Origin: Escherichia coli
GTDB taxonomy: Bacteria; Pseudomonadota; Gammaproteobacteria; Enterobacterales; Enterobacteriaceae
Direction: 5' to 3' (one strand)
Length of the DNA stretch: 64,000 bases
NCBI RefSeq assembly: GCF_036507355.1
Contig: NZ_AP027877.1
The notes below the pieces were generated by a model, which ran no database searches, had not been told where the DNA came from, and saw nothing but the letters and a program-made list of their open reading frames with translations. Position numbers and translations under genes: made by a program. Below are positions 44,305-47,232 of the stretch, piece after piece; the stretch's first letter is position 1, and each line of letters begins with the position of its first letter.

Positions 44305-44547
44305 TTACTGGGTACTGGTGGTCGTGGTTGTTGTGGTCCCGGTATTAGAACCATCACCGCCACCGGTTGCCGCGAGCGCGACACCCACCGCCGAGCTTAC
44401 GGTGCTGACGCTGGTCGCGGAGGAACTCCCCGCCGAAACCGACGTTGCTGCCGACCCTGCCGCTTCGCCCACCTGTACAGGTGCAGCCCACGCAGAAGTC
44501 GCCGCAAGCGCAGATATGGCAAAAATGCCATACAGAACTTTTTTCAT
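44305..44547 (-). CDS. yjbE: YjbE, small secreted Gly/Ser/Thr-rich protein
   Basis: 80 aa; signal peptide [21 protein letters not shown]; low-complexity tail with [10 protein letters not shown]. Confidence 0.9.
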
Positions 44548-44854
44548 AACAATTTCCCTTCATTGAATGAATGGAGATTTACCCAAAAACATTTCGGGCG
44601 GGATCGAGTATACACAACTAAAGCATGCGAATTACGGCGCGGGGAATTAGAGATGGGGTTTTAGGATAATTGGAATGAATATCAAATATAAGCTACATCT
44701 TATATATAAATAACATTAAAAATCATAATGTTAAAATAAAAGTAAAAGTAATTAATCTGAGTATTTTCCGAAATCAATCACGATTAAAAATCTATTTTAG
44801 GATTAACCTCACGGTATGATTTCCGTTAAATCACAGACAAGGGGATTTATCTGA

Positions 44855-44882
44855 TAAAAAAATGCCGACATAACGTCGGCAT
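44855..44882 (-). terminator. rho-independent terminator downstream of pgi
   Basis: Minus-strand ATGCCGACGTTATGTCGGCAT hairpin followed by TTTTTTT. Confidence 0.6.
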
Positions 44883-44929
44883 TGTTATTAAGGTTATTTA
44901 ATCAATCGTGCTATGTATTAATTGCCGAA

Positions 44930-45055
44930 TACGATGTACATATCGGCATCGACCTGTAGGCCTGATAAGACGCGACCGCGTCGCATCAGGCATCGGTTGC
45001 CGGATGCGGCGTGAACGCCTTATCCGGCCTACATAGCGGCATCAGGCATGAACGA
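44930..45055. repeat. REP / BIME cluster after the pgi stop
   Basis: GTAGGCCTGATAAGACGCG...CGCATCAGGCATCGG and TGCCGGATGCGGCGTGAACGCCTTATCCGGCCTACA units. Confidence 0.65.
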
Positions 45056-45058
45056 TGA

Positions 45059-46708
45059 TTAACCGCGCCACGCTTTATAGCGGTTAATCAGACCATTGGT
45101 CGAGCTATCGTGGCTGCTGATTTCTTTATCATCTTTCAGCTCTGGCAGAATACGGTTCGCCAGTTGTTTACCCAGCTCCACGCCCCACTGGTCGAAGGTG
45201 AAGATGTTCAGGATCACGCCCTGAGTAAAGATTTTGTGCTCATACAGCGCAATCAACGCACCCAGGCTGAACGGAGTGATTTCACGCAGCAGGATGGAGT
45301 TGGTCGGGCGGTTACCTTCGAACACTTTGAACGGCACCACGTAGTCAAGCGTTGCCGGATCTTTACCCTGATCGCGATATTCCTGCTCAACCACTTCGCG
45401 GGATTTACCAAACGCCAGCGCTTCGGTCTGAGCAAAGAAGTTAGACAGCAGTTTCTGGTGATGATCAGAGAGCGGGTTATGGGTGATAGCCGGGGCGATG
45501 AAATCGCACGGTACCATTTTGGTTCCCTGATGGATCAGCTGGTAGAACGCGTGCTGACCGTTAGTGCCTGGTTCACCCCAGATAATCGGGCCAGTCTGGT
45601 AATCCACAACGTTACCGTTACGGTCAACATACTTACCGTTGGACTCCATATTGCCCTGCTGGAAGTACGCCGCAAAACGGTGCATATACTGGTCATACGG
45701 CAGAATCGCTTCAGTTTCCGCACCAAAGAAATTGTTGTACCAGATGCCAATCAGCGCCAGCAAGACAGGCAGGTTTTTCTCGGCAGGCGTGGTGGAGAAA
45801 TGCTTGTCCATCGCGTGTGCGCCAGAAAGCAGTTCAACGAAGTTATCAAAGCCGATGGAGAGAACAATCGACAGGCCAATCGCTGACCACAAAGAGTAAC
45901 GGCCGCCGACCCAGTCCCAGAACTCGAACATGTTGGCAGTATCAATACCAAACTCGCCAACGGCTTTGGCATTGGTTGAGAGCGCCGCAAAGTGTTTCGC
46001 AACGTGTTTTTCATCACCTGCCGCTTTCAGGAACCAGTCACGCGCGCTATGGGCGTTGGTCATGGTTTCCTGAGTGGTGAAGGTTTTAGATGCTACCAGG
46101 AACAGCGTGGTTTCCGGGTTTACTTTTTTCAGCACTTCCGCGATATGAGTCCCATCGACGTTAGAAACAAAGTGCATGTTCAGGTGATTTTTGTACGGAC
46201 GCAGTGCTTCGGTCACCATGTACGGGCCGAGGTCAGAACCACCGATCCCGATGTTCACTACGTCAGTGATTGCTTTGCCGGTATAACCCTTCCACTCACC
46301 GGAAATAATCGCTTCCGAGAAGGTTTTCATCTTCTCCAGCACCGCGTTGACTTCCGGCATTACGTCTTTGCCATCAACCAGAATCGGGGTATTGCTACGG
46401 TTACGCAGCGCTACGTGCAGCACGGCGCGGTTTTCAGTGCGGTTGATCTTCTCGCCAGAGAACATCGACTTAATCGCGCCCGCCAGATCGCACTCTTTCG
46501 CCAGATCTTGTAATTTCGCCAGCGTCTCTTCAGTGATGCGGTTTTTGGAGTAATCCACCAGCATCTGATCGTCGAAGGTTGCGGAGAACTTAGAAAAACG
46601 ATCGCCGTCTTTAGCAAAAAGATCGGCGATCGTAACGTCTTTCATTTCATCGAAGTGTTTCTGTAGTGCCTGCCAGGCAGCGGTCTGCGTTGGATTGATG
46701 TTTTTCAT
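45059..46708 (-). CDS. pgi: glucose-6-phosphate isomerase
   Basis: ATG at 46708 gives 549 aa ([23 protein letters not shown]...). Confidence 0.98.
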
Positions 46709-46939: not shown

Positions 46940-47232
46940 TAGCGCAGGCCAGAAGAGGCGCGTTGCCCAAGTAACGGTGTTGGAGGAGCCAGTCCTGTGA
47001 TAACACCTGAGGGGGTGCATCGCCGAGGTGATTGAACGGCTGGCCACGTTCATCATCGGCTACAGGGGCTGAATCCCCTGGGTTGTCACCAGAAGCGTTC
47101 GCAGTCGGGCGTTTCGCAAGTGGTGGAGCACTTCTGGGTGAAAATAGTAGCGAAGTATCGCTCTGCGCCCACCCGTCTTCCGCTCTTCCCTTGTGCCAAG
47201 GCTGAAAATGGATCCCCTGACACGAGGTAGTT
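46940..47232 (+). promoter_or_regulatory. lysC 5' leader / lysine riboswitch (L-box)
   Basis: ~300-nt structured leader upstream of lysC containing AGAGGCGC and GGAGGAGCC-type L-box segments; boundaries approximate. Confidence 0.7.

Follow-up and report, generated by a model that had tools for sequence, protein, structure and literature searches.

Why is the exopolysaccharide operon yjbEFGH of Escherichia coli preceded by several hundred base pairs of very AT-rich DNA? The operon is RcsA/RcsB-dependent according to Ferrieres 2007, as that work is cited by other papers; yjbE is nearly silent in unstressed cells, shows strong induction by envelope stress (about 50-fold) as well as osmotic induction, and co-varies in expression with rcsA and with the wza/wca (colanic acid) genes. 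The appendix of one paper, as a second-hand source, labels the yjbE locus with two RcsAB sites, one IHF site and promoter arrows, and its main text gives two promoters. Here we analyse the locus in a stretch of 64,000 nucleotides of E. coli DNA (contig NZ_AP027877.1 of assembly GCF_036507355.1), called the window below.

Composition and layout of the pgi-yjbE intergenic region

The minus strand of the locus carries yjbH, yjbG, yjbF, yjbE (44305-44547) and pgi (45059-46708), and the plus strand further on carries lysC with its lysine riboswitch. The riboswitch is detected at 46945-47141 upstream of lysC (Rfam RF00168, 99.5 bits), as expected for the locus. Since pgi and yjbE are co-oriented, pgi must end, and yjbEFGH begin, within the 511 bp between them. 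The AT-rich range 44548-44930 covers most of this intergenic region, lying between the ATG of yjbE (44547, minus) and the stop codon of pgi (45059-45061, minus). By composition count, its 383 bp have a G+C content of 31.6% against 50.4% for the whole window, and only 2.7% of the segments of this length have a G+C content that is equal or lower; in the AT-rich core (44661-44860, 200 bp) the value is 24%. The composition and position described in the initial annotation, which had placed about 380 bp of very AT-rich DNA between the yjbE start and the pgi terminator, are thus confirmed, except that the pgi terminator lies inside the range and not at its edge. A terminator scan locates this intrinsic terminator at 44854-44883 on the minus strand, with a 10-pair stem (44861-44883) followed by seven U (T-run 44854-44860). 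In an alignment of 49 species inspected by eye, the stems vary yet stay perfect hairpins, with variants such as GCCGAC/GTCGGC, GCCGGC/GCCGGC, GCCGATA/TATCGGC and CGCCAGC/GCTGGCG, so that the stem is kept through compensatory changes. Because the terminator is contained in the range, the actual control region, between the T-run of the terminator and the ATG of yjbE, has a length of about 306 bp.

Beyond the terminator, a REP pair is found at 44959-45029 as a match to Rfam naRNA4 (CssrE), a REP-derived family (79.5 bits). The segment 44902-45057 is missing from some E. coli genomes, for example strain CUVET21-147, where the intergenic region has 354 bp, about the size seen in other genera; by this comparison the segment is a variable insertion in the pgi 3' region. 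In E. coli K-12 ER3413 an IS1A is inserted downstream of the pgi stop codon and ahead of the terminator, at a place equivalent to about 44946-44950 of the window; the element parts pgi from its terminator, and the yjbE control region is untouched. The strain analysed here and K-12 MG1655 differ at 31 of the 511 intergenic positions. The substitutions (44692-44779) are concentrated in the spacer that separates two elements described below, boxes R and F2; promoter, leader and boxes show hardly any difference.

Conserved blocks in Enterobacteriaceae

With YjbF as probe we collected 80 Enterobacteriaceae loci, about 75 of which have the pgi-yjbE synteny. Among 70 species the last 330 bp before yjbE have 29-40% G+C in every case, and, seven species apart, the intergenic region measures 334-511 bp. 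The conservation profile of these 70 species is not uniform: it consists of discrete conserved blocks separated by variable AT-rich spacer, and several blocks located 100-300 bp upstream of the -10 element show no or almost no variation in about 65-69 species. Read from pgi to yjbE, the order is the terminator, box F0, box F1, box R, an IHF-like site, box F2, the -10 block, and a near-invariant leader that reaches to the ATG.

In the seven species with longer intergenic regions, about 2 kb of extra DNA is inserted between the two genes (loci L016, L045, L047, L053, L054, L061 and L065; positions 772-2229 in L045). On the opposite strand, the insertion in L045 encodes a protein of 485 aa with L-fucose/L-arabinose isomerase domains (Pfam Fucose_iso_C, E = 6e-10). 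The species with the insertion keep boxes F1, R and F2 and lack box F0 and the terminator of the E. coli type.

Rcs-type boxes and the spacing between elements

Two published patterns are used to describe the boxes. The RcsAB box has the consensus TaAGaatatTCctA, with T1, A3, G4, T10, C11 and A14 as its conserved (capital) positions (PMC4325325), and the RcsB homodimer box is TN(G/A)GAN4TC(T/C)NA with the half-site TCYNA (PMC7913699). The best RcsAB-box match in the region is F1 (44798-44811, minus, TGAGGTTAATCCTA), which agrees with the consensus at 6 of 6 capital positions and at 10 of 14 overall, and has one mismatch to the RcsB box. Of 69 species, all 69 share its T1, A3 and G4, even though these positions lie outside the search pattern. 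Box R (44758-44771, plus, TGAGTATTTTCCGA) is RcsAB-box-like and inverted relative to yjbE; it also agrees at all six capital positions, and at 10 of the 14 in total, with one mismatch to TNRGAN4TCYNA, and a half-site is present at its position in 65 of 69 species. All the conserved positions of the RcsAB consensus are therefore found in both F1 and R. Position 3 of box R is A in this strain and C in K-12. The most distal box, F0 (44841-44854, plus, GGGGATTTATCTGA), abuts the terminator T-run and is an RcsB-box-like pseudo-palindrome RGA-N4-TCY with one mismatch to TNRGAN4TCYNA, whose GA and TC cores are invariant in the alignment of 49 species. Overlapping F0, directly after the terminator T-run, is an 11-bp palindrome (TTATCAGATAA in yjbE sense, 44848-44858), which is well kept in many species as TTATCYGATAA. 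Nearest to yjbE is F2 (44662-44675, minus, TTCCAATTATCCTA), which has only the right half-site of the RcsB type, TCCTA(AAA), the left half being absent; it is centred about 68 bp ahead of the predicted transcription start, and TCYNAAA is present at its position in 67 of 69 species. Across species the three half-sites vary only among TCCTA, TCTGA, TCCGA and TCTTA, that is, within the freedom allowed by TCYNA.

Overall, the 383 bp hold four matches to the RcsB box with at most one mismatch, against 0.54 in composition-matched shuffles (P about 0.003). One of these four, at 44689-44702 (TAAGCTACATCTTA), was discarded, being unconserved both among species and in comparison with K-12. A text search of the literature for the box sequences brought up unrelated hits only. 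The distal boxes F0, F1 and R precede the predicted start by 165-250 bp, a long way for direct activation.

Between the distal boxes and F2 there is an IHF-like site (44721-44733, plus, AATCATAATGTTA) that matches WATCAANNNNTTR at 12 of 13 positions and has an A-tract, AAAAA, on its 5' side. In the 70-species profile its ATCA and TTA are highly conserved and the four to five bases between them are not. A relaxed pattern WATCA-N5-TTR, in which one consensus position is left free, occurs in about 25 of the 69 species at the equivalent place and on the same strand; the exact motif is present in about a third of the species only, and such motifs are common in AT-rich DNA.

The distances between these elements fall into a few classes. 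From F0 to F1 there are 50-52 bp in 49 of the 53 species in which F0 was found; from F1 to R, 40 bp (or 39) in the main class and 29 bp in Escherichia and Kluyvera; from R to F2, 105-108 bp in the main class and 94-98 bp in several lineages; and from F2 to TATACT, 54 bp in 54 of 63 species and 42-43 bp in the rest, which are the Citrobacter freundii group. The spacings thus differ by increments of about 11 bp, one turn of the helix, and by no others, over a small number of independent indel events, perhaps five. Length changes of one turn keep the sites facing the same way, as expected if the bound proteins contact each other or RNA polymerase, and such a constraint on helical phase, for which this number of events is suggestive, would point to a higher-order protein-DNA complex.

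One position of box R also appears in phage selection. In an E. coli line selected with T7, a T-to-C change at MG1655 position 4,235,682 was fixed, the same line carrying yjbH Y102S. With the base checked, this position corresponds to 44771 of the window and precedes the ATG of yjbE by 224 bp; on the box's own strand it is the conserved A with which box R ends. As a single observation, it links a mutation fixed under phage selection to a specific position of the box.

Predicted core promoter and structured leader

The block next to the leader (44606-44618, minus, GTTGTGTATACTC) contains the -10-like hexamer TATACT at 44607-44612 and is near-invariant in both the 70-species profile and an alignment of 19 species. 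No good -35 element is found upstream of TATACT. From the position of the hexamer and the start of the hairpin described next, we predict the transcription start of yjbE at about 44599-44600, some 52 nt before the ATG. One yjbE promoter is thus placed here, as against the two given for the locus in the literature.

The predicted 5' end of the yjbE mRNA forms a hairpin, HP1 (44581-44599, minus), GCCCGAAA-UGU-UUUUGGGU. In the consensus fold of 40 species, 97% of its alignment cells are paired and all six pairs vary; many of the changes are G-C/G-U alternations, which keep pairing on the yjbE-sense strand only, and one pair is compensatory (UA 17, UG 15, CG 7). The comparison supports reading this variation as that of an RNA structure on the yjbE strand, and by the same token supports a start just upstream of HP1. 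A second hairpin, HP2 (44555-44575, minus), would pair the Shine-Dalgarno sequence GAAGGGA (44555-44561) with the upstream UCC.AUUCA. It is predicted both in the E. coli leader and in the 40-species consensus fold, and all seven of its pairs are invariant, so that covariation speaks neither for nor against it. The folding energy of the E. coli leader is unexceptional (z = -1.3).

The initial annotation had also suggested that the region may hold additional small features. The structured 5' leader is one such feature, and a match to a small RNA family, considered in the next section, is another, which most likely does not represent an sRNA. As for small ORFs, 13 of at least 20 aa overlap the region, and none is credible, each being antisense to yjbE, upstream of the predicted start, or located in unconserved blocks.

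The match to the STnc430 family

The plus strand at 44744-44893 matches Rfam RF02053 (STnc430) with 71.1 bits, against a gathering score of 47, and covers all the model positions 1-162; a match is present at the same place in 13 of 20 species tested. Taken at face value, this would be a real sRNA gene of about 150 nt, starting near 44744, ending at the shared hairpin 44861-44883, divergent from yjbE and convergent with pgi. The score and full coverage, the matches in other species, and a sigma-70-like sequence just upstream (ATAACA-16-TAAAAT, 44710-44737, plus) with a TG-extended -10 are in its favor, and the pgi hairpin could terminate in both directions. Several results nevertheless make such a gene improbable. 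The possible promoter, which overlaps the IHF-like site, was rejected as such: it is one match where 2.3 are expected from shuffles, and its -35 is poorly conserved. Past the hairpin, the plus-strand tail is T-poor in E. coli (GTTATTAAGG) and unconserved, and the E. coli RefSeq records examined carry no ncRNA annotation at this place. The founding member itself is a computer-predicted candidate sRNA of Salmonella in the pgi/yjbE spacer, with no reads in either of two cDNA libraries (control and Hfq co-IP) and no Northern probe (Sittka et al. 2008).

The main stem of the model pairs UCCGAAAA with UUUUAGGA, that is, box R with box F1. In the alignment of 49 species, 68% of the cells of this stem are paired, as against 73% in shuffles; for covariation the stem scores 0.061 as against 0.117, below all of 500 shuffles. 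RNAalifold yields no consensus structure on the STnc430 strand, only three pairs. If the stem were selected as RNA, its variable positions would be expected to co-vary with pairing preserved, and they do the opposite: the two variable positions pair less than by chance (at position 4, in 16 of 65 species where 33 are expected) and stay within the protein half-site TCYNA. Compensatory changes are thus absent from the stem. Although the locus has a score above threshold, the synteny and the strand in common with RF02053, its main stem falls exactly on a pair of inverted Rcs-type boxes, and no evidence of expression was found for the founding member. Most likely, then, the match is not an sRNA, and what it records as conservation is that of boxes R, F1 and F0 and of the pgi terminator, all seen from the opposite strand. 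A caution follows for the family, which may be propagated by annotation pipelines and which probably represents transcription-factor sites plus a neighbouring terminator. Matches to isrH and STnc350 in Rfam were far below threshold and were ignored.

Discussion

Taking these results together, we read the region as the promoter of the exopolysaccharide operon yjbEFGH together with its upstream regulatory DNA, placed directly after the pgi terminator, and we give this reading, including the mechanism proposed here, a probability of roughly 0.8. The core promoter would be a weak one, with a good -10 (TATACT) and no usable -35, so that it is proposed to depend on activators. RcsB with RcsA would bind boxes of the RcsAB type, namely the distal F0, F1 and the inverted R, with F2 as a proximal half-site. 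The IHF-like site is suitably placed for bending the AT-rich spacer, and may so bring the distal complex to the promoter. The transcript would then start about 52 nt before the ATG with a 5'-terminal hairpin, followed by the second hairpin that pairs the ribosome-binding site, and the leader may thereby control translation. The view of an extended, multi-site control region of an Rcs-regulated operon, put forward when the locus was first described, is supported by the Rcs dependence and stress induction in the literature, by the labelled RcsAB and IHF sites, and by the conserved boxes, promoter and leader.

The same first description had also raised control by H-NS, and in its strongest form this would make the AT-rich tract mainly an H-NS-bound silencer, activation being mostly relief from H-NS repression. 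H-NS generally prefers AT-rich composition such as 24% G+C over 200 bp, which is just what the core of the region has, and an operon that is nearly silent without stress and induced about 50-fold would suit such a silencer. H-NS reportedly recognises a high-affinity motif, TCGATAAATT (Lang et al. 2007). With at most two mismatches allowed, this motif has no match in 44548-44930 and 93 matches elsewhere in the window, and among the papers mentioning both H-NS and yjbE, in the parts available to us, no report of H-NS control of yjbE was found; H-NS control is accordingly left without a literature link or a motif match, although both are weak tests of it. A further point against it is that the conservation takes the form of discrete, phase-locked blocks and not of general AT-richness. 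We therefore consider silencing as the main function of the tract rather unlikely; as an added layer it would be compatible with the activator-based mechanism that we prefer. Far less probable, indeed close to dismissal, is a simple promoter followed by a long and functionally empty AT-rich spacer after the pgi terminator. The middle of the region (about 44690-44760) does behave like this, being poorly conserved among species and holding most of the differences between this strain and K-12. Emptiness of the whole, however, is at odds with the (near-)invariance of blocks 100-300 bp upstream of the -10 in about 65-69 species, with a block spacing that changes by about 11 bp at a time, and with the RcsAB and IHF sites labelled for the region in the paper appendix.

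The activator-based reading can be compared with known systems. Exopolysaccharide promoters with RcsAB boxes, such as those of wza/cps (colanic acid), rcsA, Erwinia ams and Klebsiella K2 cps, answer to the same pair of regulators as is reported for yjbEFGH, and share with yjbE the six conserved positions seen in F1, the TCYNA half-sites, boxes far upstream and a weak -35. Unlike them, yjbE has up to four candidate boxes in mixed orientation, distributed across about 190 bp, with an IHF-like site separating the distal boxes from the proximal one; the spacing is phase-locked, and the proximal box has the right half-site only. Systems in which IHF assists activation from a distance (sigma-54 enhancers, ilvPG, upstream sites of the ompC type) have in common with yjbE an IHF-like site about midway from the distal activator sites to the promoter and a preserved helical phase. 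The yjbE promoter, in contrast, appears to be of the sigma-70 type, and a role of IHF is suggested here by the motif and by the label in the paper appendix. In addition, the motif of an osmotic-shock activator found by Reg-Seq at yjbJ and ybaY has TCCTAAAAT as its right half and a left half that is said to match no known RcsB partner, and yjbE is listed among the candidate targets of this activator (bioRxiv 10.1101/2025.05.13.653802). The right half TCCTAAAAT is exact in F1, and F2 carries TCCTAAAAC.

The region belongs to already known biology, to which the present analysis adds refinements: a base-level map of the elements, the spacing of about 11 bp, the structured leader and the reinterpretation of STnc430. 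The operon is among the most strongly induced Rcs targets and affects surface polysaccharide, sedimentation behaviour and phage resistance. With the base-level map, its conserved elements become directly mutable, the known picture of the locus being unchanged. A bolder view, which we offer tentatively and regard as possible but doubtful, is that the distal half forms a conserved, phase-locked, enhancer-like array of four RcsB-family boxes in mixed orientation with an IHF bend, whose TCCTAAAAT half-sites are perhaps shared with the Reg-Seq osmotic activator. If this were true, RF02053 would be regulatory DNA and not an RNA gene, and yjbE would be a tractable place to identify the missing partner of RcsB.
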